A stretch of 64,000 bases of DNA from an uncultured Gammaproteobacteria bacterium (GCA_964522435.1 CAZFUL010000005.1:21568-85567), one strand, 5' to 3'; positions 3,093 through 42,421 are shown, counted from the stretch's first letter. Translations and numbers: made by a program. The notes: a model not told the origin generated them from the sequence alone.

Positions 3093-4967
3093 ATGACCAA
3101 AGAACCAAACAATAAAAAAACGACCCCTCCATCAACCACAGCGCTGTTGCGTAATTTTGTGTTGATTATTATTTCGTTATTTTGTATTGCTGCTCTGGTA
3201 AATACTCTTACCAATAAGCAAAAAACATACGAAGATGTGGCAATTACTCGTCTGGTAGAAGAGGTAAACAAGACGAATGTAGAAAAAGTGGATATTGAAG
3301 GCAGTACCTTGTTAGTCACTTTAAAAGAAGGGGAAAAACAACTGCGCGTGAAAAAAGAATACGGTGAATCATTTACCGAGCTCATGAGTAACTTAGGCGT
3401 GGCGCCAGAAACATTGCAAACAGTAATAGTCTCTGTAAAAGAAGCACCGGCATGGAAATCCGTTCTGTTATCTATTGCACCATTTTTACTTCCCTTTGTG
3501 TTGATTGTTGGAGCAATTTACTTTATGAGTCGTCAAGTGCAAGGCGTCAATAACCGTGCCATGAGTTTTGGATCAAACAGTGGCAAAATGGCAAAGCCAG
3601 ATGATAAAGATAAAAAAACATTTAAAGATGTTGCTGGGTCAACCGAAGCAAAACATGAGTTAGAAGAAATTGTTGACTTCTTAAAATCACCAAAGAAATT
3701 CGCAGACATGGGAGCAAAAATTCCTCGTGGGGTGTTACTCATGGGTTCTCCTGGAACCGGAAAAACCTTACTTGCCAAAGCGGTTGCTGGGGAAGCAAAT
3801 GTGCCATTCTTTCATATTAGCGGCTCTGAATTTGTGGAAATGTTTGTTGGTGTGGGGGCGAGTCGTGTGCGTGATTTATTTGCGAAAGCAAAAAAAGCCG
3901 CACCCGCGATTGTATTTATTGATGAAATTGATGCTGTTGGACGCAAGCGTGGAGCAGGACTCGGCGGTGGTCATGATGAACGAGAACAAACACTCAACCA
4001 AATTCTGGTTGAAATGGATGGCTTTGAACCCAATGCAGGGATTATTGTGATTGCGGCAACCAACCGCCCTGACGTATTAGATCAAGCCCTGTTACGCCCT
4101 GGTCGTTTTGATCGTCGCGTGGTAGTAAATTTGCCAGACATTAAAGAACGAGAAGAAATTTTACAGGTGCATGCTCGTAATAAACCATTGTCAAAAGATA
4201 TTCAATTAAAAACCTTAGCAGAAAGAACCCCAGGATTTTCTGGAGCAGACTTAGCGAATTTGTTAAACGAAGCCGCTATTTTGGCAGTACGAAAAACCCA
4301 AAAAGAAATTACCGAAGACTTGATTCGTGAAAGTATTGATAAAGTTATCTTAGGGCCAGAAAAACGTTCTCGGGTGATGAGTGAAGAAGATAAAAAAATG
4401 ACTGCCTATCATGAAGCAGGGCATGCGGTTGTTGGTCATTTTATGAAGTATTGTGATCCGGTAAGAAAAGTCTCTATTATTGGTCGTGGCTCTGCTGGTG
4501 GCTACACCTTGTCTATGCCAGAAAGTGATAAACATTATCAAAAAATTGTTGAATTTAAAGATGACATGGCCATGATGATGGGGGGCTATGTGGCAGAAAA
4601 AATGATTTATGGTGATGAACAATTAAGTACCGGACCTTCCAGTGATTTGAAAAAAGCAACCCAGCTCGCCCGCAGAATGGTCATGCAATATGGTATGAGT
4701 ACGGAACTTGGTCCACGCGTGTATTCTGAAAATGAAGAAATGATTTTCTTAGCACAAGAAATTCATGATAAGAAAAATTATAGTGAAAAAACCGCAGAAA
4801 AAATTGACGAAGAAATTACTGCCTTATTAAAACAAGCGCTCAAACGAGCAGAGCAGTTGTTACAAGAAAAGCGCAGCCTTATGGACAAACTCGTTGCCGT
4901 GTTAATGAAAGAAGAAACCGTGGAGCAAGAACGATTTAGAGAAATTATGGAAGGAAAAGCGGTGTAG
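3093..4967 (+). CDS. ftsH: ATP-dependent zinc metalloprotease FtsH
   Basis: N-terminal TM segments, AAA+ Walker A (GSPGTGKT), Walker B, the SRH region and the HEAGH zinc site. Confidence 0.95.
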
Positions 4968-4972
4968 TATCT

Positions 4973-5010
4973 ATAAAAAAACACCCCGATGTAATCGGGG
5001 TGTTTTTTCA
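4973..5010 (+). terminator. intrinsic terminator, identical to the hairpin after the S1 gene
   Basis: aaaaaaacaccccgatgtaatcggggtgttttttc. Confidence 0.8.
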
Positions 5011-5016
5011 TCTTTG

Positions 5017-5409
5017 TTATGTATGTAAGTTGTCAATTGCTGTATCAACTTCATCTTTTAACGCTTCCTCATCAAGAAGATTTCTTATCGCAGCTTCTGT
5101 GTTTGCAATATCTGCTTCACTTAATCCCGTTGTTGGATCAACAATACGTTCGCTTGCTTGTGTGGGGGGTTCTTCTCTGTCTAAAGGCATTCCATCACGC
5201 ATAAGCCGTTTTATCTCATTTGCCCTTGCAGCATCTTTTTGTTGTTCAATATTTCTATCGATCATCGCCATATCTGCCCGGTCGGCCGTTGTTCCAAAAT
5301 TTTTTTTTGGAGGTTTTTCATTTGTTGGAATAAATGATTCTTGGGATGCCTCTACATTTCTCATAGGATATATTATTAATAAATAATTTCTTTGTTCACA
5401 AGTTTCCAT
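5017..5409 (-). CDS. hypothetical protein
   Basis: 130-aa ORF with host-like composition and no recognisable domain. Confidence 0.45.
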   Translation of the reverse strand: METCEQRNYLLIIYPMRNVEASQESFIPTNEKPPKKNFGTTADRADMAMIDRNIEQQKDAARANEIKRLMRDGMPLDREEPPTQASERIVDPTTGLSEADIANTEAAIRNLLDEEALKDEVDTAIDNLHT

Positions 5410-6143
5410 CTGCCAACCGGCAAAGTACCTATAGTGAGTTTTCCAATGCGTATTCGTTTTAATGATATCACACGAAACCCGAGTCTCCCAAACATATTTC
5501 TAATTTGTCTGTTTTTTCCTTCTTTCAGTATCACGGTGACGAGGGTTCTTTTTCCTTTATTTACTCGGGATACAATAGTTATTCCTTGATAGAGCTCTTC
5601 TTCTACTCGCATGCCTTTTTGTAATATTGCTTCTGAGCCTCGATTAAGCGGTTTATCTATCGTCACTTCATACTCTTTTTCATGTTCATAGCGAGGATGG
5701 GTAAGCTCATTTGTCAGCTCTCCATCGTTGGTAAGCAGGAGTAAGCCTTCTGAATCTTTATCCAGCCGACCTACGGGGTACAGTCGTGTGTTTAGGATTG
5801 ATGCAATATATTCTTTTGGTTCTTTGCCTACATAATTTGCGGCGGTAATAAGTTCTAATACCGATGCGCCTTGTTCGTTAGAGGCACTCGAAATATAATC
5901 AATGGGTTTGTGTAGGGCAATATAGATGTTCTTTTTTTCTTCGGCGGTTGTTGGTTGAATAACTTTTGCAGAACCAGTGCCATCAATAATTTCTATGACG
6001 TCTGTTGTTGGATCTATTTTTGTTCCTTGTTCTACAACAAGAATACCGTTCACACGGATGTTTCTTTCAGCAATCAAGAGTTCGGCTTTTCTGCGTGAGC
6101 AGATACCCGCATCTGCGAGATATTTGTGGAGACGAATGAGCAT
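5376..6143 (-). CDS. pseudouridine synthase, RsuA/RluB family
   Basis: N-terminal S4 domain (RLHKYLADAGICSRRKAELLI) and the catalytic core (VGRLDKDSEGLLLLTND). Confidence 0.85.
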   Translation of the reverse strand: MLIRLHKYLADAGICSRRKAELLIAERNIRVNGILVVEQGTKIDPTTDVIEIIDGTGSAKVIQPTTAEEKKNIYIALHKPIDYISSASNEQGASVLELITAANYVGKEPKEYIASILNTRLYPVGRLDKDSEGLLLLTNDGELTNELTHPRYEHEKEYEVTIDKPLNRGSEAILQKGMRVEEELYQGITIVSRVNKGKRTLVTVILKEGKNRQIRNMFGRLGFRVISLKRIRIGKLTIGTLPVGRWKLVNKEIIY

Positions 6144-9513: not shown

Positions 9514-10077
9514 TTATGAGGCTAATTCGCAGTGCGTATGGGTTGCGAGTTGGTGGATATGAGATTCGAGACGATTGGATGTTGAGCGAAGAGCTGTGAA
9601 TTCTGTATCGAGCTTAAGATGGAGAGACATAAATCCATCTATGGTATTCATGATATCATTTTTTACTGTAGAAAGTGCTTCTTTTGTTGCCATTCCCGAT
9701 ATTTCTTGACGGAGGTCTTCATTCAGTAAATAGATTTCTGTGCGCAACTCCTTTTTTGCATTGGTAATATCATCTTTCGTCGCGCCGTTCTCTTGAATAA
9801 ACTGAACCATAGTAAGAATGTCTTGCGTTGTTTGTTCGTTTGTTGTCATTCTGTCTGCCAACACAGCGATGTCTTGTTTGGTAGCGCTTGTTTGTTTTAA
9901 TACGGTGACATCTTGGTTCAAATCATTGATGTTTCCTTTCATCGTATGTATATCTTCTTTTATATCTCCAACATCTTCTTTTAAATAGCCGACGTCTTCT
10001 TGTACTTTCGTTAGATTTTCTTTTAACGATAGAACGATCGTGAGGATATCCTGCACTGTTTGTTCATTGGCTTGCAT
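9514..10077 (-). CDS. coiled-coil protein with 11-residue (hendecad) repeats, paralog of 15123..15590
   Basis: Repeats such as VQEDVGYLKED / VGDIKEDIHTM and an ATKDD motif. It has host-like low GC. The N-terminus is trimmed to Met31 (MQANEQTVQDILTIV), which aligns with the paralog's start. Confidence 0.55.
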   Translation of the reverse strand: MQANEQTVQDILTIVLSLKENLTKVQEDVGYLKEDVGDIKEDIHTMKGNINDLNQDVTVLKQTSATKQDIAVLADRMTTNEQTTQDILTMVQFIQENGATKDDITNAKKELRTEIYLLNEDLRQEISGMATKEALSTVKNDIMNTIDGFMSLHLKLDTEFTALRSTSNRLESHIHQLATHTHCELAS

Positions 10078-10344
10078 ACAACAAAAATTATGAATAAAGG
10101 TGGAGGATATAGAGCGATTATAGCAGGGAGGGTTTGTATAGGCAAGGAATCCTAAATCTAAAATCATAAATCAAAAGTCAACAATTGTAATATAGTTTTT
10201 ACTGGTTCAATAGACTATTTCATCTATATTACGATGGAGCCAAAGATTACTTAAGGTTTATTCTCCAATTTTGATTTATGACGTTAGATTTATAATTTTT
10301 TCTCTTATTTTAGCAAAATTTTGTTATTTATGAGGCTGATACAC

Positions 10345-10373
10345 TTGACAAAATTGTTTTTTTATGATATTAT
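10345..10373 (+). promoter_or_regulatory. sigma70-like promoter (TTGACA, 17 nt, TATTAT) pointing into the island
   Basis: cttgacaaaattgtttttttatgatattat read directly. The spacing is consensus. Confidence 0.5.
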
Positions 10374-10379
10374 CTCCCG

Positions 10380-10603
10380 TTCTGAAAATGAAAGCTACAG
10401 ATAGAACAACTGACAATTACATAACATATCACTCCGTTTGCCTATATCTCGTCTACCTACGCCCCTTGGGCTTCGGTAGACAAAGGCGGACAAAGGAAAG
10501 AGAGAGCCTTAACAGTGATAGTTCAAAGAAATCCAGCACCCACCTACGCTAAAGCTTCGGTGGGCAAGTCAACCACTCTCTCAAACAGAGTGGTTTTGTT
10601 TTG
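10380..10603 (+). ncRNA. candidate small structured RNA (~220 nt) between the promoter and an intrinsic terminator
   Basis: Two related hairpins, ccTACGC..CTTCGGTag and ccTACGC..CTTCGGTgg, then the terminator ccactctctcaaacagagtgg plus ttttgtttt. No ORF is present. Confidence 0.35.
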
Positions 10604-10827
10604 ACAAGCTAACGCATTAGAAACAACTATTGCAGTAGCTTCTCGAAATAAACTCGAGAATGGTAGCGGAGGTTGTAGGACCTATGAGTGAAAGCAATTT
10701 TGCTCGTTCTCCCTCGCGGCTGCTCTAGATATCTAGTACCGAGTGCGTCTTGCCATGTGGCGAAAGTCACGTGGACAGGACACTCTGTAGTAGTACAGAG
10801 ATAAGCGATCTTTATACATACTCTACC

Positions 10828-10991: not shown

Positions 10992-11255
10992 ATGAACGCC
11001 CCCGCGCTGACCGAGACGACCCCCGCCGCCAACGCCTACCGCCCCACCCTCGCCGAAGCTCGCCGCCGCGCCCGGAGCGCGGAGCGAAGTGGCCGTCCCC
11101 TCGAGCGGATCTACGCGATCCGGCTCGAGGAGGAGGAGACCCCCGCCCAGCCCGAGCGGGTGGTGGTGGCTCCGAAGAAGCCGGTCAGCCGTTCCAATCG
11201 GCGGTGCCCTGCTGAAAATCAGGGTGCGTTCGGCAAGGGACGACGCATCGACTAG
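10992..11255 (+). CDS. hypothetical small protein (Arg/Pro-rich)
   Basis: First gene of the high-GC island. The start is chosen at the internal Met (MNAPALTETT). Weak evidence. Confidence 0.3.
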   Translation: MNAPALTETTPAANAYRPTLAEARRRARSAERSGRPLERIYAIRLEEEETPAQPERVVVAPKKPVSRSNRRCPAENQGAFGKGRRID

Positions 11256-11735: not shown

Positions 11736-12767
11736 ATGGACAAGGCGGCAGGGAATGTTCCAGGCTCGCCAAATATATTCCCGATCGGGGCCTGGAAATG
11801 GCTCGTGGTCGGGGAAAAAGTAGACCTCGACGCTATTCTGGCGTTGTACATTATGGGCATCCGCCCATGGTACGACATCCGGGTGGTGTCGGGGTCGGCG
11901 ACGGGTGCAGAGCTCGCGGATTCCCGCGTGCTCTGCATCGAAGTTGGAGGGAGCGGCCGGGTGGAAGAAGGAAACTTCGACCACCATGGTAGCTCCGGAG
12001 TTGTTGAATGCGCCAGCCGTCAGGCTTGGTGCATTTGGCAGAAAGAACAAGAACAGCGCGCGCGGATCCTCAACGGGTTGGTCGATTATGTCGGCCTCCT
12101 TGATGAAGGGCACCGTCGCGCCGAGTCCGGACAGGTTGCGTTTCCCTCGTTGACGCAACTCTTTTCCGGCATGCTCCTCTCTGTGCGTAAGCCTGAGGAG
12201 CAAATTCAACAGGGCTTGCTGTTGATCGACGCTGCTGTCCGCGTTGGTCTGAACCCGTTCCTTGAGAGCGGGAGCAAGTTGTTTGAGGTTCTGGACAGTG
12301 CCCGGCTGTGGGCTGCCACCAAGCGTGCGCATGAAAAGAATGGCGAAGCCATTCTGGCGAACGCAACGTGGCTCACCAGTCGGGAAGGGCGCCGGGTCGC
12401 GGTCATTGAGACCACCTGGTTCGGCGCCCCTGGTGCGTTGCAGGGGGCTGGGGCAGATCTCGTGATCGCCCTGAATCCTCGCCACTGTGTGAACGTAGCG
12501 GATTATTTTCGCAAGTTCACGGTGGCAGCGCATCGAGAAGCAGGCATTTCGGTTCTTCCTGCCCTGCCCGAGCTGAATCAGCTCGAGCTTGGATGGGACG
12601 GGCCTGGCCACGGCACAATCATCGGGTCACCCCGAGGAAAGAGCAGCTGCCTGAGTATGTCTCAGGTGGTAGCCGTGGTCTTTCGGCAAATTTTTGGGGA
12701 AGCGTTGCAGATCGATGAGATTTGCAACACCCCGGAAATTTTGCCGGAGGAATGCCTGGCGGCCTAA
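11736..12767 (+). CDS. DHH-superfamily phosphoesterase-like protein
   Basis: Strong RBS (AGGAGGT) 7 nt upstream and high GC3. Motifs DLDAILAL (DxDAxGS-like), NFDHHG (DHH) and GPGHG (GGGH-like) appear in DHH/DHHA1 order. Confidence 0.5.
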   Translation: MDKAAGNVPGSPNIFPIGAWKWLVVGEKVDLDAILALYIMGIRPWYDIRVVSGSATGAELADSRVLCIEVGGSGRVEEGNFDHHGSSGVVECASRQAWCIWQKEQEQRARILNGLVDYVGLLDEGHRRAESGQVAFPSLTQLFSGMLLSVRKPEEQIQQGLLLIDAAVRVGLNPFLESGSKLFEVLDSARLWAATKRAHEKNGEAILANATWLTSREGRRVAVIETTWFGAPGALQGAGADLVIALNPRHCVNVADYFRKFTVAAHREAGISVLPALPELNQLELGWDGPGHGTIIGSPRGKSSCLSMSQVVAVVFRQIFGEALQIDEICNTPEILPEECLAA

Positions 12768-12881: not shown

Positions 12882-13433
12882 ATGATTGCCAAAATGTTTC
12901 CGGGTAAAAACTCCGCCCGGGAAGTTTACACACAGAGGCAACTCTGGCACATGCGTGCATATTGTGTAGACTGGCTCAATTACGAGCAACATTCCTCCTT
13001 TTCCTTTCCGGGCGGAGCGCCTGGAAGAGGAGGGGGAGCATGCGTCGTGCATACCTCTACTCAGGATGACATCTTGAATGCCACCCAACATATCCCGACC
13101 GCCGAGCAGTTCGCTGCCGGCGTGATCGAACCCTGTTCGGAGGTGAAGGAGCGTATCGTCGTGCTTCTTACCTTCAACAAAATCCCTTCGCAAACTGAGG
13201 TTCTCGATCGGGCGCGTGCTTTGGCCGCGCTTGTGAAAGAACAGGGGTACAACGCCGCCATGATTGGTGGCGTCGCCTACCTGATGCCTCCCTTTGAGCG
13301 GGAGCTGCGTCGGGTGGGCGTGATCCCGCTGCATGCGTTCACCGAACGACGTGCGGTGGAGAAGCACACCCCCGAAGGCGTGGTGAAGACGAACGTCTTC
13401 GTCCACGTCGGTTTTTTTGAGGGGATTGAGTAA
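12882..13433 (+). CDS. hypothetical protein
   Basis: 183-aa ORF in the island on the same strand as its neighbours. No motif recognised. The start is uncertain and may be Met24. Confidence 0.4.
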   Translation: MIAKMFPGKNSAREVYTQRQLWHMRAYCVDWLNYEQHSSFSFPGGAPGRGGGACVVHTSTQDDILNATQHIPTAEQFAAGVIEPCSEVKERIVVLLTFNKIPSQTEVLDRARALAALVKEQGYNAAMIGGVAYLMPPFERELRRVGVIPLHAFTERRAVEKHTPEGVVKTNVFVHVGFFEGIE

Positions 13434-13918
13434 AAAAAAAGAAAGGAAAAAAAGATGAGAAGATAGCGCGCCACTCACTTGGGCGCAAGGCATAAATACA
13501 ACTGAGGGGTGCCGTATCACCCCCTGCAAAACCATTCTCGTCTATACGGAGATAGAGCATGGCGATTGGTCCACGTTAAGGATGCACTCGGATTCGGCTT
13601 TGCACAAAGTCGATTCCACCGGAATATTTTTCTTAGACAGAAGAATATTGGGGTGGGATAGAATGCGACTGTTCTTTAAAAAATTATCCGCCTTCGTCAC
13701 CTTCTGGTGGCTACGGCGGACAAAGATAGCGTGTGCTCAAAAAGATTTTTGGCAAACAGAAATTTTTTTGAGCATACGCTCGTTTCCTACTCGGCAGGCA
13801 TGGTGTCTCGCCGGGTTAAACCAGGAACTGACCCCACTGAGTTGGGGAAAAAATGGGACAGCAACCCCATCAGTTCCCGCCGCATGTTCACGCGGCGTTA
13901 CTCTCTTTGGAGAGAAAC

Positions 13919-14857
13919 ATGAACAACTTCAAGACCTTGTCCTTCCTCCTGGGCCTCCAGCCCAGCGATCCGGCCTCCGTCATGGAGGTCGCCCCCACCC
14001 TCAACCTCGGGGCCGACGACAAGGTCGTGCCCCAGCTCGAGGCCGCCCTCCGGGCGGCCGGCCTCGAGGGCCTGGCCCTCGAGCGCATCGTGTTCCCCGG
14101 CAACGGGGCGGCGGCGATCGCCATGGTCGCCCTGTACGAGGGTGCGCAGGGGATGCAGCTGCCCACCCATGTGGTAGCGACGGCCCCCTTCAAGGGCAAC
14201 GCGGAGGTCGGTGAGTTCAACCTCGCCAACCTCCGTCACAACGAGGCCCGCAGCCTCCGGGACGAATTCGAGACCGACGAAGAGAATGCCACCGCCAACG
14301 GCGCGTGGCTCCTGCTCGACGGCTCGGGGCGCCCCGTGCCCAACCAGATCCTCCTGGATCTGATGCGGGAGACCGCCGGTGCCACCGACATCACGGTCGT
14401 GCCGTTGGGCATGCCCGCCCAGCGCAGCGTCACCGAGCCTTGGAAGGCCGCGGACGGTTCGACCACCACGGTCGACCGCCTGCGCGCCCTGCTCGCGGAC
14501 GGCGCCTTCACCCGCGCCGACCTGATGTCCGGGCGGGTGGCCTTCCTGCCCCCCGGGATGGGCACCGCGGCGCTCTGCGACGCGGCGATCATCTACGGCG
14601 TGGCCGAGTCCTGGCCCACCGTGGTACGGCAGGCTGGAACGGCGCCCTTCCCCTTCGCCGAGCTGGTGCGCGTGCACGAGCTGCGCCAGCTGGGCGCGCA
14701 GATCGCGGCCGAGCTGAAGACCGCCGAAGCCCCGGTGCTGGTGCCCCGTCACCTCCTGAACGAGGTGGTCGAGGCGCTGCAGACCCGCAACGAGGAGGGG
14801 GCGGACTACGGTGAGCTCCTCGACGAGCTCACCACCCTCCTCGCCCGCGGCCGCTAG
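13919..14857 (+). CDS. hypothetical protein (313 aa)
   Basis: A GGAGAG RBS precedes the ATG at 13919. High GC3 and no recognised domain. Confidence 0.55.
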   Translation: MNNFKTLSFLLGLQPSDPASVMEVAPTLNLGADDKVVPQLEAALRAAGLEGLALERIVFPGNGAAAIAMVALYEGAQGMQLPTHVVATAPFKGNAEVGEFNLANLRHNEARSLRDEFETDEENATANGAWLLLDGSGRPVPNQILLDLMRETAGATDITVVPLGMPAQRSVTEPWKAADGSTTTVDRLRALLADGAFTRADLMSGRVAFLPPGMGTAALCDAAIIYGVAESWPTVVRQAGTAPFPFAELVRVHELRQLGAQIAAELKTAEAPVLVPRHLLNEVVEALQTRNEEGADYGELLDELTTLLARGR

Positions 14858-15122: not shown

Positions 15123-15590
15123 TTAGACCCGCATGAGGTCGACTTTTTCTTCGACTCGCTGTTGACGTAAACTCACTGCGGCAAGGTCTGATTCTTGTTT
15201 TTGATAGAGGCCGATAAAGTCATCAACATGATTGTTGATTTCATGACGAAGGACAGCAATATCAGTTTTGAGTTCAGTTCTGACCAAAGTAATTTCTTGG
15301 TATAGCTCGGTTTTTGCTGATCGGATTTCTTTGTTCATATCCTTTCTTACCGATGTAATTTCTTGGCTGAGCTCCTTTTTTACCGATTGTATTTCTTGAT
15401 TGAGTTCTGTTCTTACTGATGTAATTTCTGTTTGTAATTCTTTTTGAAAGCGATTGATTTTTTTATCAAGTCTTTGTTCTACCTGAAAAAGATCGTCTTT
15501 GGTGGCAGCGTTATCTTTGAGAAAATCAATGGCTTCTCGATTTTCGTGAACGGCTTGGAGGATATCTCTGAGAGTTGGCTCGTGTTCCAT
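15123..15590 (-). CDS. coiled-coil hendecad-repeat protein, paralog of 9514..10077
   Basis: Repeats ELQTEITSVRT / ELNQEIQSVKK / ELSQEITSVRK, an ATKDD motif and an N-terminus MEHEPTLRDILQAV. It is low-GC and on the minus strand, embedded inside the high-GC island. Confidence 0.55.
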   Translation of the reverse strand: MEHEPTLRDILQAVHENREAIDFLKDNAATKDDLFQVEQRLDKKINRFQKELQTEITSVRTELNQEIQSVKKELSQEITSVRKDMNKEIRSAKTELYQEITLVRTELKTDIAVLRHEINNHVDDFIGLYQKQESDLAAVSLRQQRVEEKVDLMRV

Positions 15591-15954
15591 AGAAGAAGAC
15601 AGGTACCTAAATAATATATATACCATATCACAAACAAAAAAAAGAGACTATCAAAAAAATAAAAAAATTCGAAAATGCGCGATTGCTGATAGCTATTCAC
15701 GAGGAGTGGAATATTATCAGGAGTTGCGACAAGTATATACGGCAGTTCCTTACAAAAAAATATTTATGGTGAACAGCCTTCCACCACTCAATTAAGAGTA
15801 GAACAAGATAGATTACCCTATCTTGCTTTTTGCTTTTAGTTGAGTGGTGAAAGGGAAGAGAGACAAAAAAGCCGTCTCCCTCTAACACCATTAAACCGTC
15901 CCGCAAACTGGGGCGTCCGGCTGCTCGCCGGCTCTTTCAAAACGAGGAGGGGAA

Positions 15955-16509
15955 ATGAGCGCACATATGATGCGGTGGTTTGAGTTTTTGATGATCCCGC
16001 GCAACATGCTTGTGTTGGGATTGAGCGTCGGCCTCCTGGTCGCCATCATCGGCGGCTGGGACATTCTCGAGCCCACGAGCGGACTCGCCACCCTGGCCTT
16101 CGCTGCCGCCACCTGGTGGCAGACGAAGAAAAAGGCCAAGGCTCGCTACGCGAACATCGAGGGCGAGGATTTCATCATCGTTCTCGAGCTCAAAAGGACG
16201 GTGGTGGAGTCGATGACGAAGCAGTTTGGTCGGGCACCCGACCAGGTGCTCTTTGTCAAAAAATTGATCGGCACCATCGAGTTGACTACTGAAGAACACT
16301 GGGAAACACTCGTACGGGCTGTATGGGAGGTGATGTCCTCCCATCAGGATAAAAATATCTTATTTGCCAGTGACGTTCCCGGGCAACTCTGGGCATGTCT
16401 CGGACAGATGGCCGGGATGGACCGTCTCCGAGTCAAATGGCTCGGGTACTTCAATGGTCAAATCGATGAGAGCTGTCCTCGCCCCCGAGGTGATTGGATG
16501 TTGCCATGA
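15955..16509 (+). CDS. membrane-anchored hypothetical protein (N-terminal TM helices)
   Basis: GAGGAGG RBS and two predicted TM segments. It overlaps the next gene by 16 nt (ATGTTGCCATGA), suggesting translational coupling. Confidence 0.55.
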   Translation: MSAHMMRWFEFLMIPRNMLVLGLSVGLLVAIIGGWDILEPTSGLATLAFAAATWWQTKKKAKARYANIEGEDFIIVLELKRTVVESMTKQFGRAPDQVLFVKKLIGTIELTTEEHWETLVRAVWEVMSSHQDKNILFASDVPGQLWACLGQMAGMDRLRVKWLGYFNGQIDESCPRPRGDWMLP

Positions 16510-16976
16510 TTTGGTGCCTCCGCTCTGGCGAATCCGTGCGGGATCGGGATGATTCCCACCTGCACGGGGACGTCGTGAGGTACCTGCCCGAAGTGTTGGC
16601 TGCCACCAATTCGCGGGGGCAGGCAAGCATTGTTCGGGAGCACCGCTTTCCCAGGGTCGTTGGTGTGAAGAATGTGGTGCAGACCAACCAGTCTGACAGC
16701 ATTCTCTTCGCCCAACGGCCGGGGAGAGCGGGCTTATCGCGGTTCGTGTTGAACCGTCGCCCGGAACCCACCAATTGGGTTACGGTCATTCTGCGCCAGC
16801 AACCAACTGGCGAGTACATGATCGTATCTGCTTGGTGCGGACCGGCGACGACCCACGAACCGTGGGACAAGTACGCGACCCTGTCAGTCAGCCGCCGGTT
16901 CTGGAGCACCCACGCGATTGTGTGGGGCACCGAACCGGCGGACGAAGAAACCATAACCACAACCTGCCCCTGGTGA
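16494..16976 (+). CDS. hypothetical protein (160 aa)
   Basis: Coupled to the upstream gene and on the same strand as the MoxR/VWA pair. Confidence 0.45.
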   Translation: MDVAMIWCLRSGESVRDRDDSHLHGDVVRYLPEVLAATNSRGQASIVREHRFPRVVGVKNVVQTNQSDSILFAQRPGRAGLSRFVLNRRPEPTNWVTVILRQQPTGEYMIVSAWCGPATTHEPWDKYATLSVSRRFWSTHAIVWGTEPADEETITTTCPW

Positions 16977-17179
16977 ATGTGGGCAGAAAAAAGGAGGCAC
17001 TCGAGGCTCGTTATGATATGCACATTCATACGAGCCGGCTTCACGAGTAGTGATTGCAAATGCAATGACTACTGATGAAGCCGCAACAGTAGCAGACCTG
17101 CTGCTGTGTGGTGTGTTCTTGAAAATCGAAAACAGTTTTTTGACATCCTCGATTTGATCGGGGAGAGGAGGAAGAGGCC

Positions 17180-18448
17180 ATGAAGCCGGTAATCGCTACC
17201 ATTCTGACTGCGGCGCTTGCGCTGCGGACGAAGATTGTGGAAACTCAGCGCGCCCTTGCGGGGGCGCTGGTCGAGCGTGAGGACGAAGTCCTCGCCTGCC
17301 TGGTCGCCATGGTCTGCGATCAGGCGGTGTTCTTCTATGGCCCGCCCGGCGTGGCCAAGACCTTCGTGGCCGAGCTCTTGCTCAAGGCCATCGAAGGTGC
17401 CACGTACTACACTGCCCTCATGCCGGGCGTGGCCGACCCTGACGACCTGTTCGTCGAGGGGATCTCGGTGGTGAAAATCGATGAGGGTGGCGGCCATATC
17501 CGTACCATCATCGAAAAAACACCTGGCAGAGCGGCGCTCGTCAACGGTGTCCTGCTCGATGAGCTCTTCAAGGTGGACGATCCACGTGTCCTCCAGGCGC
17601 TCCTGGATTTGACCTTGTCGGACGGTGTGCGCCTGGAAGGCCGGCGTCTGGCCGACCAGGCGCACCTCGTGATGGGCATCTCGAACGAAACTCCCAATTC
17701 TGGGAGCGAGTTCGATGCCCTTTGGGCACGGTTCGTCCTGCGTTTGTCCGTCAAGCCCCTCGGGGCTGACGGGCGTAAGCGCATGATCCGTATCCAAGAG
17801 GCTGCGGCTCGTAATGGCGGAGCAGGAGTCGTCCGCCCAGCGAATCCACTCACGTTGCAGGACATCGCGACCCTGCAGCAGGCTGCGGCGCAGGTCGACA
17901 TCGGAGATGACATCCTCGACCTCATCGAGGAGACCATCGACGAACTGTTCAGCCAAGATGCGGATGCCTTCCGCTGGCTGAAGCAGGACGATCGCCGTCG
18001 TGGCCTGATGGTCAAGGCGTTGAAGGCGCACGCCTTGATCCACGGACGGACGGCCGTTTCCAAGGCCGACCTGGTCATTCTGAAATGGATGATGTGGAAT
18101 CATCCAGATCAAATCGAGCAGGTCGAGGAAAAGGTGAAGCCGCTTGCGGCGACACCTTTCTCCGAAGCCTTGGAGGAGATCGATGACCTCCTCGCCCCCA
18201 ACGGCAAGGTGTGGAGGGCGTTTGAGAAGCGGGAAATGACCTGCTTCACGGACGCCGCCGCTCAGATCAACCGTTTGAAGGACACCGTCCTTCCTCGGTT
18301 GATCAGCCAAGCCAGTGGGATTGAACTCAGCCGTCTGGAAGCCATGAAGAATGGTGTCCAACGGCTGTTCACGGGAGTGATGGCGCGCATCTCGGGCCAG
18401 GAGTCCGAGATGAGCTGGGACGCTTTCGTCCAGCTCCTCAAGAGCTGA
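17180..18448 (+). CDS. MoxR-family AAA+ ATPase
   Basis: Walker A GPPGVAKT, Walker B VLLDELF, a sensor-1 Asn region, an Arg-containing second region of homology (SRH) and a C-terminal helical lid. A GAGGAGG RBS is present. Confidence 0.8.
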   Translation: MKPVIATILTAALALRTKIVETQRALAGALVEREDEVLACLVAMVCDQAVFFYGPPGVAKTFVAELLLKAIEGATYYTALMPGVADPDDLFVEGISVVKIDEGGGHIRTIIEKTPGRAALVNGVLLDELFKVDDPRVLQALLDLTLSDGVRLEGRRLADQAHLVMGISNETPNSGSEFDALWARFVLRLSVKPLGADGRKRMIRIQEAAARNGGAGVVRPANPLTLQDIATLQQAAAQVDIGDDILDLIEETIDELFSQDADAFRWLKQDDRRRGLMVKALKAHALIHGRTAVSKADLVILKWMMWNHPDQIEQVEEKVKPLAATPFSEALEEIDDLLAPNGKVWRAFEKREMTCFTDAAAQINRLKDTVLPRLISQASGIELSRLEAMKNGVQRLFTGVMARISGQESEMSWDAFVQLLKS

Positions 18449-18458
18449 GGAGGGAGAC

Positions 18459-20192
18459 ATGTCTTCGTCCGAAAAAAGGCGAGGAGCCCCACCGCTCCGA
18501 AGGCAAGATCTCGAACCTGCTCTGGTCACTGATGCCGATTCCGTAACGGTACGGCGTTATTTGTCCAGGCGGTCTGAGACCCCTGCCATCTGGGGGCTCG
18601 AACAGAGCGCAAATATCTCGGGTGCTCCCGCTGCACTCGCAGATACCTTCAACGTCTTGCTGTCCTCAGCGGTCGGCGTCAAGCCAGAGGACAGTGTCAA
18701 ACCTGCGCAACGCTATTGGCGAGGGATCCTTGATCAATCAATGGAGACCTCGCCGTTCGAGGCGTTGCGTGGAAAAACCCGTGGCGATGAACTCTTGTCT
18801 ACGATTGGCACCTTGGAGGCGGCGAACACCGTCTTCGGTCTGGTGCCCAAACAGGACAAAGAGAAACTCGATAAGTTGGCCCAGGCGCAAGCCGAGGCTG
18901 ATGAATTCGAGGCTGATGCGCAAAAAGCAGAAATGGACGCGCAAGCGTTTCAAGATCTGCTCGCGCAGATGCAAGCCGCGGTACAAACCGAAGACGGGGC
19001 TGGTCAGGGAAGCGGACAACCGCAACCTGGTCAGCCTAGTGTTGGTCAAGCAGGAGGAAAAGCTTCGGGTAAGTCCTCCAGCGGATCGGCGCAGATGAGT
19101 GCTGAACAAGCACAACAAATCGCTGATCAATTGACCAAGGCGCAGAACAAAGCAGCAGAAGCCCGTGAATTGGCAGATGCTGCTCAAGAAGAGCTTCAGG
19201 CCAAAGCTGACGCATTGATGGGGAAACCCGGAACTGCAGAGGCAGAAGCCAAGCTCGACGAACTGCGTCGACTCGGTCGTGCGGCCATGCAACAGGCAAA
19301 CGAAACGGTCGGAGAAGTCCGAGATACCGTGGCGGCCTGGGGCGTGGAAGCTGGCGAGATTGCCAACCTGGATCCGACGGAAGCGATGGCGCTTCTCGAG
19401 CGCATGAAGAGCAATCAGCATTTCAAAAAATTTGCTGAGTTGCTTGGACGCTTGCGTCGGGCCGCGGAGAAAAAGGCTCGGATGGAAGAAAAGGGTAAAA
19501 GCACACGCGTGCCCCGAATCCATCTGGGTCGAGATATCGGCCGAGCACTGCTCAGTGAGGTCGCTGCCTTCGCGATGGGTGATATCCATGAGGATATGGT
19601 CACCGAGCGATGGGCACGCGGTACATTGCGACAGCGCGGAGCCGTGACCAAGCGCCAACAAAGCGCAAGCGAAGGCCCGATGGTGATCTGCGAAGATGCC
19701 TCGGGATCGATGGCTGGTGAGCCCTATCGCTGGGCAAAGGCCGTCACCTTGGCGCTGGCCACACTTGCTCGTGAAAAGAAGCGGGGCTACGGCTGGGTCA
19801 TGTTCGATGAACGCGTTCAGCGTTCGCGCGCATATCCTGCCGGAAAACTCGGAGCGCGTGACATCCTCGAAATTGCCGAAACGGCAGCAACCGGTGGTGG
19901 CACAAACTTTGAGGCACCGCTTCTCCAGGCAAAGAAAATGATCGACGAAGAAGGTCTTGAAAAAGCCGACATCGTTCTGATCACGGATGGGGACTGCGCG
20001 GTTTCGCAGCAGTTCCTCGAAAAATTCTTGGCCTGGAAGCAAGAACGGTCGGTGACAGTGATCTCCGTGGTTATCAATGTGGGAAGCTATGCTTGCTCCA
20101 CTGCCACGGTTGATAAATTCTCCGACCGCGTCGAGCGCGTCTCGAGCTTCACCGCGGAAGCGGCTGAAGCTCAGGTGTTCGCCCACCTCTGA
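18459..20192 (+). CDS. von Willebrand factor A (VWA/MIDAS) domain protein with a long N-terminal coiled-coil, Q/A/G-rich region
   Basis: C-terminal VWA with MIDAS DASGSM, GGGTNF and LITDGD motifs. It is the obligate partner type for MoxR ATPases, as in RavA-ViaA, CoxD-CoxE and NorQ-NorD. Confidence 0.8.
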   Translation: MSSSEKRRGAPPLRRQDLEPALVTDADSVTVRRYLSRRSETPAIWGLEQSANISGAPAALADTFNVLLSSAVGVKPEDSVKPAQRYWRGILDQSMETSPFEALRGKTRGDELLSTIGTLEAANTVFGLVPKQDKEKLDKLAQAQAEADEFEADAQKAEMDAQAFQDLLAQMQAAVQTEDGAGQGSGQPQPGQPSVGQAGGKASGKSSSGSAQMSAEQAQQIADQLTKAQNKAAEARELADAAQEELQAKADALMGKPGTAEAEAKLDELRRLGRAAMQQANETVGEVRDTVAAWGVEAGEIANLDPTEAMALLERMKSNQHFKKFAELLGRLRRAAEKKARMEEKGKSTRVPRIHLGRDIGRALLSEVAAFAMGDIHEDMVTERWARGTLRQRGAVTKRQQSASEGPMVICEDASGSMAGEPYRWAKAVTLALATLAREKKRGYGWVMFDERVQRSRAYPAGKLGARDILEIAETAATGGGTNFEAPLLQAKKMIDEEGLEKADIVLITDGDCAVSQQFLEKFLAWKQERSVTVISVVINVGSYACSTATVDKFSDRVERVSSFTAEAAEAQVFAHL

Positions 20193-20199
20193 AAACCAA

Positions 20200-20400
20200 A
20201 AACTCCCCCAGCATTGCTGACAACTGGGGGAGCCTGAAAAACAGTCAGTCAGTGTTTCTCGCCTGGCAATGAGAAAACACTGTCAAAAAGTTACGCCAAA
20301 GGAGATTCGTGGTGACTCCAAATAATTTCATCACACAACCGGTCGTTTGTTTTGCTGCACACACTGCAAACGACCCTTCAACTTTCTTTCTGATAGGAAT
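20200..20400 (+). repeat. structured intergenic element, copy 1 (three hairpins), paralogous to 23233..23428
   Basis: The 3' core of ~105 nt is ~96% identical between the copies. The upstream hairpins are diverged with compensatory changes. Confidence 0.6.
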
Positions 20401-20527: not shown

Positions 20528-20839
20528 ATGCAGTGGACTATTGTATTTTTTTCATCGTGGGATCACCCCGTCGATGAACGCCCTGGCCTGGTGCCCGAAG
20601 GGTGTCTGGGTCTGTACCTCATTGATGTGAGGCACGATTCCGAAGAATTCTTGCTCGAGGGGTATCTTCCTATGGGGCAAGAAGTCGACGCACAGGTCTG
20701 CTTCGACTTGAAAAGTACGGAGCAGGTGTACCGAGGGGTGGGGGCAGAGTCTCCCATCGCGGAGTTCCGCAACGCCCAAGGTGAGGTGGTCGTCCGCCTC
20801 ATCTGGGATCAGGAGACGGGGGAGTACCGGCGGGAGTGA
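20528..20839 (+). CDS. hypothetical small protein (103 aa)
   Basis: GGAGGAG RBS, downstream of repeat copy 1. Confidence 0.45.
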   Translation: MQWTIVFFSSWDHPVDERPGLVPEGCLGLYLIDVRHDSEEFLLEGYLPMGQEVDAQVCFDLKSTEQVYRGVGAESPIAEFRNAQGEVVVRLIWDQETGEYRRE

Positions 20840-21117: not shown

Positions 21118-23223
21118 ATGTCGACCACCACCCCAGCTCCGGAAAAGATCATTTCCCTCATCACTTCTGAAGAGGGAAAAGATTTTAAGACAAATGGGGA
21201 AGTGGTGGGAAACTATCGCTACTCCATTGTTTTTTTCCCGCGCGGGGAAAAGTGTGAGCCGGGGAAAGAATACCGGCTTGAGCTGACTCCTTTACGGGGT
21301 CAAGACGGAAACCCTCGAACCGACAAGCGCGGAAAGGTGATGTACACATCACGCCCCGCTGCCGTGGAGATCACCGAGACCTGGGAATCCTTGCCCGACG
21401 GCAATATCCAGCAGCTGCAAGTCCGCACGGACTGGCGCTTGCAGGAAGTTGGTCGCCGGGTCATCGACGGCCCCCGCCCACCTGCGGCGCGCGAAGCTGC
21501 CGAGTTGTTCCCCACCACCCGAAAGGAGTTGGTGTTTGGCAGCTCGGTTGCCGACACGCACCTGGCAGAGGTTGTCGTGCACACCTTTCCCATCGAACAG
21601 GAAGAGGTGAAGGCCGGCAAAATCAGCTGGGTGCGCAGCGGGGAACGCCAGGTGGAGGACTCTCCCGTCCTCTACCTGGTGGACAGCCTTGTAGGCGTGC
21701 TGTATACCGGCACGCTCGACCTGGTGTACCCGCCGGAGCGTGACTGCTCCGTTGAGGTACGATTTACCGGAGGAAAATCCGGCACCCGCCTGTCGCTGCG
21801 CTGGGATGCTCTCCCGGCCTGGTTTCAGGCAGAGGTGCAGCGGCCGTATCCCGTCTGCCCCTGCGGCCGCAAGCGCGTGGGCTCCAACTCAGATGGCTAC
21901 GCCAAGTGCGAAAGCTGTCGGGACGAGGAAACCTGCGTGCGTTGCAACCAAGAGCGGCGCATCAACCTCATTGAGGGGCTCGCGATCTGCAAGGGTTGCG
22001 AGCCCATGGCTCGGCTTGAGGCGGAGGTACATATCCATGTGCCACAGTCCAAGCGAGCTGAGCTGGCTGCGCAAGCGGCTCGGCTCATGTCGGCGAATGC
22101 GCTTCCTGGTGATGTCGGCTACTCCCTGCTCAAAGAATTGTTGAGCGCTGAGGGGGTGGAAGGCGAAACCCAGGAAGTGTTGCTGCGGCGAGCAGATCAT
22201 GCCTGGCTCTACTTCTTCCCTACGGGAGAAGTATGGGCCAGCCACCTGCCTCTGGTGGCGCTGCAGATTTTGGCAACAGCGCTCGGCGCGGCGCAGGGCA
22301 ACGGCCTGGTCACCTTGGTGGCCTGGATGGTTAGCCCGACCTACTTTGTGGCCACGCAAGTGGAACACAAAGAGCTCTCCCTGTATTGGGAGACGCCGCT
22401 GCACAGCGTGCAGCTCGCCAAGCGGGTGCGCCAGGCGCATGCCGAGCGGCAACGCCGCCTCGATCAGATTGACGTGTTGATGGCAGGGCTCATGAACACT
22501 GATTTCAATGACGAGTGGCGGCTCAAACAGCTCCGCTCGGCGACGCTTCTTGATCAAGAGGATGGGGCTAGCGATAGCCAAATCCTCTTGGAAATAGAAA
22601 GCACGCAGGCGAAGCGGAAGGCGGAACGCGAGGAGCTCGTGGCAGTGAAAGCTGCGGCAAAGCCGATCGCGGAGAAGATCTTTGCTGAGGAGCATGATCT
22701 TCCCAAGGCCTGCCGCAAGGCCAACCGCGACAGCCAAGCCGAGGCGGTTGAGCACGCCTATGGCTGGATCACCAGCCGTCGTCGCTGGGAGCACGATGAG
22801 CCGGTCGTCCAGAATTGGCTGGACTGGGAAAATCTTGAGCGCCTCCGGGAGTTTGTACAAAAGTACTCCTGGGTGCTCGAGCCCATCCGTCCGCTCGTTG
22901 TGCCGCCTCGCCCTCGTTGGGGCGATCTCCCGAACCCGAGCGCCGTCCCGACCCCTGCTCGCCAGAGCAACGGTACTGTGGCCACCTTCACCGATACTGG
23001 TGATGGTCGACACTTCCGTTGTTCTGCTTGTAACGGTACCCATCGGGTAACAAAAGCAGAACAGCGCAGCTACAAAGATGGCGAAGAAATTCACCTGATC
23101 TGTGGCTGTAGTGCCGAAGGAAGGGTACGGCAGGTTGTTGCTCCCGTGTCTCCCAGCACCGCTGGTGCTGGAGACATGGCTGATCAACTGGCCGCTTTGC
23201 GCAGCAAGTGGGGTGGCTCCTAG
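21118..23223 (+). CDS. large hypothetical protein (701 aa) with multiple CxxC zinc-ribbon-like clusters
   Basis: Cys clusters CPCGRK..CESC..CVRC..CKGC mid-protein and CSACNG..CGC near the C-terminus. A GC hairpin and an AAGGAG RBS lie upstream. No known catalytic motif. Confidence 0.65.
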   Translation: MSTTTPAPEKIISLITSEEGKDFKTNGEVVGNYRYSIVFFPRGEKCEPGKEYRLELTPLRGQDGNPRTDKRGKVMYTSRPAAVEITETWESLPDGNIQQLQVRTDWRLQEVGRRVIDGPRPPAAREAAELFPTTRKELVFGSSVADTHLAEVVVHTFPIEQEEVKAGKISWVRSGERQVEDSPVLYLVDSLVGVLYTGTLDLVYPPERDCSVEVRFTGGKSGTRLSLRWDALPAWFQAEVQRPYPVCPCGRKRVGSNSDGYAKCESCRDEETCVRCNQERRINLIEGLAICKGCEPMARLEAEVHIHVPQSKRAELAAQAARLMSANALPGDVGYSLLKELLSAEGVEGETQEVLLRRADHAWLYFFPTGEVWASHLPLVALQILATALGAAQGNGLVTLVAWMVSPTYFVATQVEHKELSLYWETPLHSVQLAKRVRQAHAERQRRLDQIDVLMAGLMNTDFNDEWRLKQLRSATLLDQEDGASDSQILLEIESTQAKRKAEREELVAVKAAAKPIAEKIFAEEHDLPKACRKANRDSQAEAVEHAYGWITSRRRWEHDEPVVQNWLDWENLERLREFVQKYSWVLEPIRPLVVPPRPRWGDLPNPSAVPTPARQSNGTVATFTDTGDGRHFRCSACNGTHRVTKAEQRSYKDGEEIHLICGCSAEGRVRQVVAPVSPSTAGAGDMADQLAALRSKWGGS

Positions 23224-23232
23224 AACTAAACC

Positions 23233-23428
23233 TTTCCCGGTTGATGCTGGTATCCCGGGGGAGTCTGAAAAAATTTACCAGTGCGTGTCTCTTGCTTGGC
23301 AACAGGAAGACACGGAAAAAAAGAAACGCCAAGGGAGATTCGTGGTGACTCCAAATAATTTCATCACACAACCGGTCGTTTGTGTTGCTGCACACACTGC
23401 AAACGACCCTTCCACATTCTTTCTGTCA
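23233..23428 (+). repeat. structured intergenic element, copy 2
   Basis: See copy 1. It follows the 701-aa gene by ~10 nt and precedes the next gene. Confidence 0.6.
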
Positions 23429-23575
23429 CAACGCAGTTTGGTACGGAGAGAATGAGAAGTGTTTCCGCCCGAGAGAAGAACGGGCGGTGTGTGTGGTCTC
23501 GTCAGTGGGTTACTGATTGAGGCCTTTCCAACCCAGTCCCCGCTACCGTGGGAGAAAACGGAGAAGGAGAAGATC

Positions 23576-24109
23576 ATGGCTCGTCGTGATGAGCCCATGT
23601 CGCGTGAGAAGTGGCTCGCGCAGCGAAACAATGGACGAATCTTTGAGAGCTGGGAGGATTTCCTCTCGGCCATCAAAGAGGCACCCACGGTATCCATGGG
23701 GAACGAGCCGGAGGGGACCATTCGTTTCTCCTCGTGCTTCGTTCTCGCACACGGTCCGACCCGCTATGTGGTGTACACGCTCGGCACCCCAATCTTTGGG
23801 GTGAGCGTGGGGCAACAAGGCGTTTCTGAGCTCTCCTGGTTCCCTCTGGAGCCGGTCGAGTTCACGCCCGAAATGCTTCTCACCCTCGTTGGGGTGGGGT
23901 GTAAGTTCAACGACACTGGGAGCGAGATTCGCTCCCTCACGGGCTGGGAAGCCATGCTCCACCTGGAGCAGCGCTACAACTGGCTCGTGCAATCCGGCAA
24001 GGTGGATCCTCGCGGTGGTGGGCTGCTCTCACCGAGTTCGGCCTTCTTCCGTGAAGGCGAAGACATGGCCGATCTCGAACAGCAGATCGCTGCGCTCGAG
24101 ATCGCCTGA
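23576..24109 (+). CDS. hypothetical protein (178 aa from the RBS-supported start)
   Basis: GGAGAAGGAG RBS. The C-terminus GEDMADLEQQIAALEIA resembles the C-terminus of the 701-aa protein (GAGDMADQLAALRSKWGGS). Confidence 0.5.
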   Translation: MARRDEPMSREKWLAQRNNGRIFESWEDFLSAIKEAPTVSMGNEPEGTIRFSSCFVLAHGPTRYVVYTLGTPIFGVSVGQQGVSELSWFPLEPVEFTPEMLLTLVGVGCKFNDTGSEIRSLTGWEAMLHLEQRYNWLVQSGKVDPRGGGLLSPSSAFFREGEDMADLEQQIAALEIA

Positions 24110-42400: not shown

Positions 42401-42421
42401 TCATCACTCACTTATCTTTCC

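Follow-up and report, generated by a model that had tools for sequence, protein, structure and literature searches.

What does a MoxR-type AAA+ ATPase, paired with a von Willebrand factor A (VWA) protein that carries a metal ion-dependent adhesion site (MIDAS), do on foreign DNA among partners of no characterised family? The question is raised by a stretch of 64,000 nucleotides from an uncultured Gammaproteobacteria bacterium (GCA_964522435.1 CAZFUL010000005.1:21568-85567; hereafter the window), in which a first-pass annotation had singled out four plus-strand genes as a candidate module: a membrane protein (TM184), a 160-residue protein (p160), the ATPase and the VWA protein. All four open reading frames (ORFs) are present where that annotation placed them. 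Judged by comparison with related loci, however, the functional unit appears not to be these four genes: the invariant set of the lineage is MoxR, VWA and p701, a multi-zinc-ribbon protein encoded downstream. We lean, tentatively, towards reading the genes as part of a horizontally acquired conflict island of about 10.8-24.4 kb that holds a defensive effector module responsive to cyclic oligoadenylate (cOA). The account stands on the observed gene content, domain and fold assignments, co-occurrence and foreign composition, and from these we infer how the module would work.

The ATPase (17180-18448, plus strand, 422 amino acids) is a RavA-like AAA+ module with an AAA_lid_8 lid. It matches the Pfam models bpMoxR (PF20030; 7.8e-14, 51.7 bits against a cutoff of 27), AAA_lid_8 (43.7 bits, cutoff 22.8) and AAA_5 (34.4 bits, cutoff 22), as well as phrog_19600 (4e-34). 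Its Walker A (GPPGVAKT at residue 54) and Walker B (VLLDE at residue 124) motifs are both intact and, together with the MoxR-type lid, place it by sequence in the MoxR family. The nearest solved protein in a PDB sequence search is RavA (3e-21), aligned over residues 18-322, the AAA+ module alone, and the NCBIfam RavA model (PRK13531) reaches 1.1e-26 and 94 bits against a cutoff of 681, again over residues 14-322 only; by both comparisons the protein lacks the LARA domain and falls outside the RavA equivalog. The VWA protein (18459-20192, plus strand, 577 amino acids) is ViaA/CoxE-like, with matches to VWA_2 (4.5e-9, 37.3 bits, cutoff 27), VWA_CoxE (1.4e-6, 28.3 bits, cutoff 26.4) and phrog_24053 (5e-47). 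With a VWA domain, a MIDAS motif (DASGS at 413, TDG at 509) and a gene adjoining that of the ATPase, it has the sequence features of a MoxR partner; the NCBIfam ViaA model aligns with residues 215-510 at 1.3e-14 and 54 bits against a cutoff of 500, and a PDB sequence search gave no useful match. About 30 full-length homologues share 40-54% identity with it, one of them from Candidatus Uhrbacteria. An unusual N-terminal region of about 350 residues rich in Gln, Ala and Gly had been attributed to this protein. The richness is real at approximately residues 150-340 (Q 12%, A 21%, G 9%) and only there, and the low-complexity insert at residues ~185-240 is shared with one related locus (L042) and otherwise lineage-specific; the rest is conserved. 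Because the N-terminal 400 residues align with homologues from Patescibacteria (L042, L034) and phages, and part of the region aligns with the ViaA model, we regard it as a feature of the family and not an oddity of the window.

The tight linkage described for the four genes holds at two of the three junctions. TM184 (15955-16509, plus strand) and p160 (16494-16976, plus strand) share the reported 16-nt overlap if p160 begins at TTG 16494; with the alternative start ATG 16506, used in the public annotation of the protein (P0001, 156 amino acids), stop and start codons overlap as ATGA at 16506-16509, and under either start the two genes are coupled. MoxR and VWA are indeed 10 nt apart, with GGAGG inside the gap. 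Between p160 and MoxR, however, lies a 203-nt spacer (16977-17179) with two hairpins, possibly an internal terminator or attenuator or a second promoter region, in which a promoter scan found no consensus promoter. The four genes thus form two coupled pairs, not one tight block. A GC-rich hairpin (CTCCCCCAG...CTGGGGGAG, 20203-20232) directly 3' of VWA is the likely terminator of the MoxR-VWA unit; its minus-strand form was detected in the terminator scan.

Five loci of the window's lineage were compared: the window itself, L042, L047, L049 and L050. MoxR-VWA-p701 is found in 5/5, while p160, the transmembrane SAVED-like gene and a Csx15-like gene occur in three each and a P-loop-Csx3 gene in two; p160 and the transmembrane gene alternate with the Csx15-like and P-loop-Csx3 genes. 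Upstream of this core the window carries p343, p183, the Csx15-like p334, a low-GC gene, TM184 and p160, and its core reads MoxR, VWA, p103, p701, followed by p216. The L042 locus is syntenic, with TM184 and p160 upstream; L047 has a Csx15-like gene, p160, P-loop-Csx3 and a 604-residue protein with an N-terminal p160 domain; L049 has P-loop-Csx3; and L050 has a Csx15-like and a transmembrane SAVED-like gene. An intermediate locus, L034, reads P-loop-Csx3, p160, MoxR, VWA and then a DEAH/HA2 helicase, so that P-loop-Csx3 stands next to p160 or MoxR in L034, L047 and L049. In other loci the p160-MoxR-VWA trio adjoins a B116-like (AcrIII-1 family) gene and a Csx3 gene that stands alone. The four-gene module is thus only partly supported as a unit. 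The p334 gene, which lies outside the span first delimited, forms part of one conserved gene set with the MoxR-VWA block. The protein p701 (21118-23223, plus strand, 701 amino acids) has CxxC pairs at 264, 273, 291 and 635, and its homologues lie immediately downstream of VWA in L042, L047, L049 and L050/L051 (25-33% identity, E 1e-31 to 1e-57). Neither p701 nor its homologues have a PDB match or match any Pfam family, VMAP included (E 0.1; E 0.05).

Does p160 belong with the pair? It has no match in Pfam, NCBIfam or PADLOC, although it matches phrog_23674 and belongs to a large unnamed family with 1,345 members at E<=1e-3 in a profile search of 1.84 billion cluster representatives, most of them stand-alone proteins of ~160 amino acids. 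A scan of GTDB species genomes gave 29 loci, mostly in metagenome-assembled genomes (MAGs) of Patescibacteria, with a few from Verrucomicrobia/Opitutae and other bins. Combined with contigs reached through close homologues these make 35 loci, in 21 of which p160 lies beside MoxR-VWA (17 complete pairs and four cut by contig ends), either before MoxR or after VWA. The first-pass annotation had made its proposal depend on such co-occurrence outside the window, and it is found both for p160 and for the membrane protein, which recurs in L042 and L050. Most of the p160-linked pairs consist of a MoxR of ~360 and a VWA protein of ~470 residues and were missed by tblastn at 1e-3 with the window's pair, a divergence that ties p160 to two distant MoxR-VWA lineages; the repeated and permuted adjacency argues for a functional tie. 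The predicted model of p160 has an RNase A-like/BECR fold, which suggests a candidate metal-independent nuclease or phosphodiesterase; a PDB sequence search gave no useful match and a BFVD fold search nothing significant. Two fusions bear on its role: P0040 joins a P-loop domain, a Csx3-like domain and p160, and P0060 joins p160 to a 2H phosphoesterase with HSTI and HITL motifs. Among the top 150 family members p160 never forms the C-terminal tip of a long polymorphic toxin. Phages have homologues as well, standing alone and surrounded by tRNA genes, both in lytic jumbo phages (GAP32, CBB, BF and others) and in Pseudomonas Otagoviruses. In Cronobacter phage GAP32 (L044) the gene occupies 4944-5417, and in Pseudomonas phage Astolliot (L045) a gene at 5001-5471 adjoins an RNaseH-like (PF04308) gene; neither has an adjacent MoxR-VWA pair.

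The remaining upstream genes point to cyclic nucleotides. TM184 was first described simply as a transmembrane protein, and a strong transmembrane helix at residues ~17-38 agrees with this, with a weaker hydrophobic segment at 44-56; beyond that description, its 184 residues include a single predicted CARF/SAVED-like alpha/beta domain at residues ~70-170. The C-terminal 100 residues match the PADLOC profile SAVED4 (4.6e-6), so that the protein is SAVED-like by profile as well as by predicted fold; the best structural match of the model is the viral ring nuclease AcrIII-2, and a PDB sequence search gave no useful match. TM184 is thus predicted to be a membrane protein that binds cyclic oligonucleotides and, having one CARF-like unit, would need to dimerise to form a SAVED-like site. 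It is rare, with two close homologues in a search of 5.8 billion proteins plus JGI metagenome contigs, one of them in L042; a distant homologue in L050 (25% identity; NCBIfam SAVED 5.6e-6) lies upstream of MoxR-VWA-p701. The p334 protein (13853-14857, plus strand) has a C-terminal domain like that of Csx15, a cOA-binding/ring-nuclease family, and an extra N-terminal region. The window's copy falls below the NCBIfam CAS_Csx15 cutoff of 35 (NF040560; 8e-4, 19.6 bits), as does the homologue beside MoxR-VWA in L050 (6.9e-8, 32.8 bits), whereas that in L047 passes it (3.6e-9, 36.9 bits). Searched alone against PDB sequences p334 gave no useful match; the top match of the family profile is 9teu_A, 'csx15' (E 0.013). 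On these profile matches the family can be called Csx15-like.

The suggestion that all this sits in a foreign island with uncharacterised partners was borne out by composition. Host DNA is ~41% GC and carries genes including those for S1, FtsH, a DsbA-like protein, a tRNA methyltransferase and endonuclease III, together with ORFs at 38930-46312 that are putative rpoB/rpoC judged by size alone. The island, in contrast, is 55-72% GC, with a single interruption by a minus-strand coiled-coil gene of low GC (15123-15626), and GC content at third codon positions (GC3) is 0.57-0.92 in the ten island genes against 0.26-0.39 in host genes. The island is foreign, horizontally acquired DNA, and each of its proteins is alone in its 90% cluster of the protein collection. 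Islands of this type are recurrent in, and seen almost only in, Patescibacteria, where the MoxR-VWA block lies 10-20 GC points above its flanks in nearly every locus. An assembly chimera is an unlikely source of the GC jump, because more than 20 independent MAGs from different studies have the same high-GC block in low-GC flanks; the low-GC gene between two high-GC blocks in the window was also counted against it. The p334 gene has a GC3 of 0.92, far above the 0.57-0.76 of the rest of the island, which suggests a mosaic of pieces with different histories. Two kinds of mobile element were considered and rejected: a prophage or integrative element, since genes for an integrase, tRNA or structural proteins and att-like flanking repeats are all absent from the window's island (among related contigs only L007 has an integrase), and an integron-like cassette array, considered for the intergenic hairpins and short repeats, since neither an integron integrase nor any consistent attC-like site is present.

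How might such a set of genes act? The engine would be the RavA-like ATPase and the ViaA/CoxE-like VWA-MIDAS protein. The interchangeable upstream genes would encode proteins that bind or cleave cOA, SAVED-like and Csx15-like in the window and P-loop-Csx3 and B116-like in relatives, and would couple the module to a cyclic-oligonucleotide signal. The catalytic output may be p160, as a nuclease or phosphodiesterase that needs no metal and has either RNA or the cyclic nucleotide itself as its substrate. MoxR, using ATP, and the VWA protein, through its MIDAS, might hold, assemble or release p701, p160 or both, by analogy with the threshold switch proposed for MoxR-vWA pairs of other conflict systems (PMC7159879). 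We favour this defensive, cOA-responsive module because both MoxR and VWA retain intact domains and catalytic motifs; because p160 is found fused to P-loop and Csx3-like domains and to a 2H phosphoesterase, and P-loop-Csx3 adjoins p160 or MoxR; because TM184 is SAVED-like, the p334 family Csx15-like, and Csx3 and B116-like genes stand beside the trio elsewhere; and because MoxR-VWA-p701 is kept in all five loci of the lineage, the block is foreign and p160 is linked to two divergent MoxR-VWA lineages. There is also precedent, in MoxR-vWA NTP-dependent ternary conflict systems with Csx3 and RNases among their effectors (Kaur et al. 2020, PMC7159879) and in CARF-linked vWA-MoxR systems near type III CRISPR loci (PMC10910872).

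Several observations pull the other way. The fold score of p160 is modest, p160 is missing from two of the five loci of the window's lineage, and no conserved immunity-like gene accompanies it across the p160 loci. The TM184 model is of medium quality and built on three sequences, and it contains a single CARF-like unit, not the full two-lobed SAVED domain. No cyclase (Cas10, CD-NTase) was found among the island ORFs or the precomputed Pfam lists of related loci, and no CRISPR-like array in the window, the cellular loci and the phage-record stretches up to L051 (761 kb in total). Finally, the MoxR-VWA clade is common in large phages, the closest phage relatives of both proteins being in Moorella phage MTATph1 and Bacillus phage 0305phi8-36. 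In IMG/VR the VWA clade was detected at 44 viral loci, of which 41 have MoxR next to it and none has p160, p701, a Csx15-like gene or TM184, so the pair alone does not imply cOA biology.

A more far-reaching reading, which we think possible though rather unlikely, is an undescribed conflict system largely restricted to Patescibacteria, in which a phage-type MoxR-VWA motor, coupled to p160 and p701 as two new protein families, is wired to cOA through swappable SAVED-, Csx15-, Csx3- or B116-like modules and has no local cyclase. If so, it may sense or destroy signals made elsewhere, conceivably in connection with an episymbiotic lifestyle, and p160 would represent a new class of cOA or RNA phosphodiesterase that jumbo phages also have.

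The serious alternative, unlikely in our estimate yet fitting several of the facts equally well, is that the island is counter-defence cargo of a mobile element, collecting enzymes that destroy cOA and so blunt type III CRISPR or CBASS (cyclic oligonucleotide-based antiphage signalling), with p160 a further phosphodiesterase and MoxR-VWA serving the element in some other way. Csx15, Csx3, Csx20 and B116 are all ring-nuclease families (10.1101/2024.09.24.614671; PMC13148439), and the resemblance of the TM184 model to the viral enzyme AcrIII-2 (PMC12751052) would suit the same role. The foreign composition, the lack of a cyclase or CRISPR array nearby, the p160 relatives in lytic jumbo phages and Otagoviruses, the relative fused to a 2H phosphoesterase and the wide distribution of the MoxR-VWA clade in phages are likewise as expected. 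The window's island, however, has none of the hallmarks of an element listed above, and the viral MoxR-VWA loci are without exception devoid of its partners; an IMG/VR scan with the p160 alignment, made for p160 of the Patescibacteria type, found none. Moreover, a membrane-anchored SAVED-like protein and large fusions (P-loop-Csx3 and the extra domain of p334) resemble sensor-effectors more than minimal anti-CRISPR enzymes.

Less likely again is an ordinary chaperone pair derived from a phage, which would mature or assemble a complex as RavA-ViaA does, with p701, p160 or both as clients and the cOA-type neighbours as unrelated cargo. The tail-assembly pair of Acidianus two-tailed virus is a second model. 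The affinity of the ATPase to RavA, its closest solved relative, and of the VWA protein to ViaA agrees with such a role, as do the phage homologues annotated as chaperonin subunits, the viral loci in which the pair stands alone (41 of the 44) and the virion-assembly roles proposed for MoxR-vWA pairs of phages and archaeal viruses (PMC7824862). Yet neither the island nor its surroundings contain virion, respiratory or metalloenzyme genes, the RavA and ViaA scores are far under the equivalog cutoffs and LARA is missing; chance is also hard to invoke when independent loci repeatedly place four to five different cOA-related families next to the pair and Csx3 is fused to p160. Least likely, and in our opinion improbable, is RNA repair or processing by analogy with Ro60 (vWA)-RtcB systems, in which p160, the P-loop kinase-like domain, the 2H phosphoesterase and the DEAH helicase would have damaged or precursor RNA, for example tRNA, as their substrate and MoxR-VWA as remodeller: tRNA genes do surround p160 in jumbo and T4-like phages, p160 is fused to P-loop and 2H domains and a DEAH/HA2 helicase follows VWA in L034, but no locus has an RNA ligase (RtcB, Rnl) or a Ro/TROVE domain, SAVED-like and Csx15-like partners suggest nucleotide signals and not RNA ends, and the helicase occurs in one locus only.

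The other genes of the island add a few hints. The p183 protein (12882-13433, plus strand) has a weak Csx20-like match (PADLOC 6e-5; NCBIfam CAS_Csx20 1.2e-4) limited to residues 143-178, which we treat as a hint, and no PDB sequence match. In p343 (11736-12767, plus strand, GC3 0.66) the motifs VDLDA and GNFDHHG recall DHH phosphoesterases; Pfam, PADLOC, NCBIfam and PDB gave no match. A small ORF between VWA and p701, p103 (20528-20839, plus strand, GC3 0.68), has no family match and is not conserved in related loci, and p216 (23459-24109, plus strand, GC3 0.72), the last high-GC ORF of the island, also has no family match. A short plus-strand ORF at 10993-11255 (~87 residues from ATG 10993, ~69% GC, rich in Arg, Pro and Ala) is a coding candidate within a long ORF-poor stretch, between p343 and a candidate small RNA at the island's left edge. 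The latter (10345-10615, plus strand) has a near-consensus promoter (TTGACA-17-TATTAT), UUCG-loop hairpins, an intrinsic terminator and a minimum free energy z-score of -3.3, with 0/200 shuffles folding as well; it matches no Rfam family. The low-GC gene at 15123-15626 has a paralogue at 9514-10167, also on the minus strand; both encode coiled-coil proteins, contain 33/66-nt tandem repeats and lie immediately left of a high-GC block, and a homologue occurs near the p160-MoxR-VWA trio in L019. A direct repeat (20226-20392 and 23257-23425; 147-169 nt, 86-88% identical) stands just 3' of the terminator-like hairpins that follow VWA and p701, shortly before the next gene in each case; it has two conserved plus-strand hairpins (z about -1.9), no Rfam match and no counterpart in any of the 95 fetched loci. 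The window has no tRNA, CRISPR-like array or Rfam family at the gathering threshold; with eight related loci included, nothing except tRNAs passed that threshold, and matches at the E-value threshold were at chance level.

Related loci have further features of their own. The ORF-poor gaps of 1-4 kb upstream of the trio hold no widely conserved DNA, the sole conserved stretch, between L004 and L011, being the remnant of a B116-like gene in L004. Twenty further high-GC neighbour ORFs were almost all without a Pfam match; those found were to DUF3228, a transposase fragment, an AAA protein, GATase and an HD domain. A recurrent arrangement, present in 17 of 39 related loci, consists of a gene for an uncharacterised protein of 900-1200 amino acids and, overlapping its 3' end from the opposite strand, a gene for a TrmB-family regulator (for example L004 4281-8169, L050 1272-4653 and L049 88-975). 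Both genes resemble the host in GC, precede the high-GC MoxR-VWA block by 1-4 kb on its upstream side and are absent from the window; the arrangement could reflect regulation or an insertion hot spot.

Patescibacteria have tiny genomes and few recognised defence systems, and a recurrent foreign island combining MoxR-VWA with several families that bind cOA or act as ring nucleases would open a new branch of cOA-based conflict biology in this little-studied radiation. It would give a testable function to p160, a large orphan family without a Pfam model that is also present in jumbo phages, define p701 as a new third partner of MoxR-VWA pairs and provide a concrete case for asking what MoxR-VWA "threshold switches" do. 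The persistent GC offset of the block also raises the question of where these genes originate and how they move.

Measured against known systems, the locus resembles several and coincides with none. Metabolic maturation operons, membership of which the first-pass annotation had named as a finding that would refute its proposal, find no counterpart here: no genes for carbon monoxide dehydrogenase, nitric oxide reductase or RuBisCO occur in the island, its flanks or the related loci, and assignment to CoxD-CoxE, NorQ-NorD or CbbQ-CbbO was rejected for lack of client enzyme genes. Type III CRISPR and CBASS do not describe the locus as far as it was covered, since no cyclase family appears among the island ORFs or the precomputed Pfam lists of related loci and, for CRISPR, no array in the 761 kb scanned. 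The transmembrane SAVED and CARF effectors (CBASS Cap14, PMC10402079) and AcrIII-2 (PMC12751052) are the nearest comparison for TM184, but a SAVED domain is ~250 residues of two units, whereas the TM184 unit is ~100 residues in a protein of 184 with one or two transmembrane helices and no cyclase partner. With the RNase A-like CdiA-CT toxin of Yersinia kristensenii (PDB 5e3e; Pfam PF18431) p160 shares 8% sequence identity, and compared with CdiA-CT and the BECR-fold RNases (RelE, colicin E5, BrnT) it is ~45 residues longer and lacks an adjacent immunity gene. RavA-ViaA of E. coli is similar in the AAA+ module, including AAA_lid_8, in the ViaA alignment and in the adjacent, co-oriented genes, but the locus differs in the missing LARA domain, in the absence of nearby lysine decarboxylase, fumarate reductase or Nuo genes, and in its foreign composition and other partners. 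The phage pairs (0305phi8-36 gp66/gp63, MTATph1 and Aphanizomenon phage CL131) belong to the same clade, with 28-34% identity and the same order of MoxR then VWA, but have no p160, p701, SAVED-like or Csx15-like neighbours and a proposed role in virion assembly (PMC7824862).

The closest likeness is to the vWA-MoxR ternary systems of Kaur, Burroughs, Iyer & Aravind (PMC7159879), which share MoxR, a vWA/MIDAS protein, a conserved third protein, variable effector or sensor genes including RNases and Csx3, and a sporadic, island-like distribution; the window's MoxR matches PF20030, the Pfam model built from those systems. CARF-linked vWA-MoxR-VMAP loci close to type III CRISPR (PMC10910872) are counted among them. 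The third component here is instead the 701-residue zinc-ribbon protein, or p160 in the other lineage, with no match to VMAP, FtsH or a beta-propeller: VMAP is lacking in p701, its homologues and the other island ORFs, and no WD40/beta-propeller family occurs among the ten island ORFs or the related-locus neighbours. Effector domains are encoded here by separate genes and not as vWA fusions, the hosts are unicellular, reduced-genome Patescibacteria and not multicellular bacteria, and no CRISPR locus is adjacent. The first-pass view that this combination is not a named system thus holds for VMAP, beta-propeller, RavA-ViaA and metabolic systems, although its general kind, a MoxR-vWA conflict system, is known. 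On present sequence comparisons the locus is best filed near the MoxR-vWA NTP-dependent conflict systems, without their defining third components, and what is new in it is the two partner families, p160 and p701, the encoding of swappable cOA-type modules by separate genes, the distribution in Patescibacteria and the GC offset.

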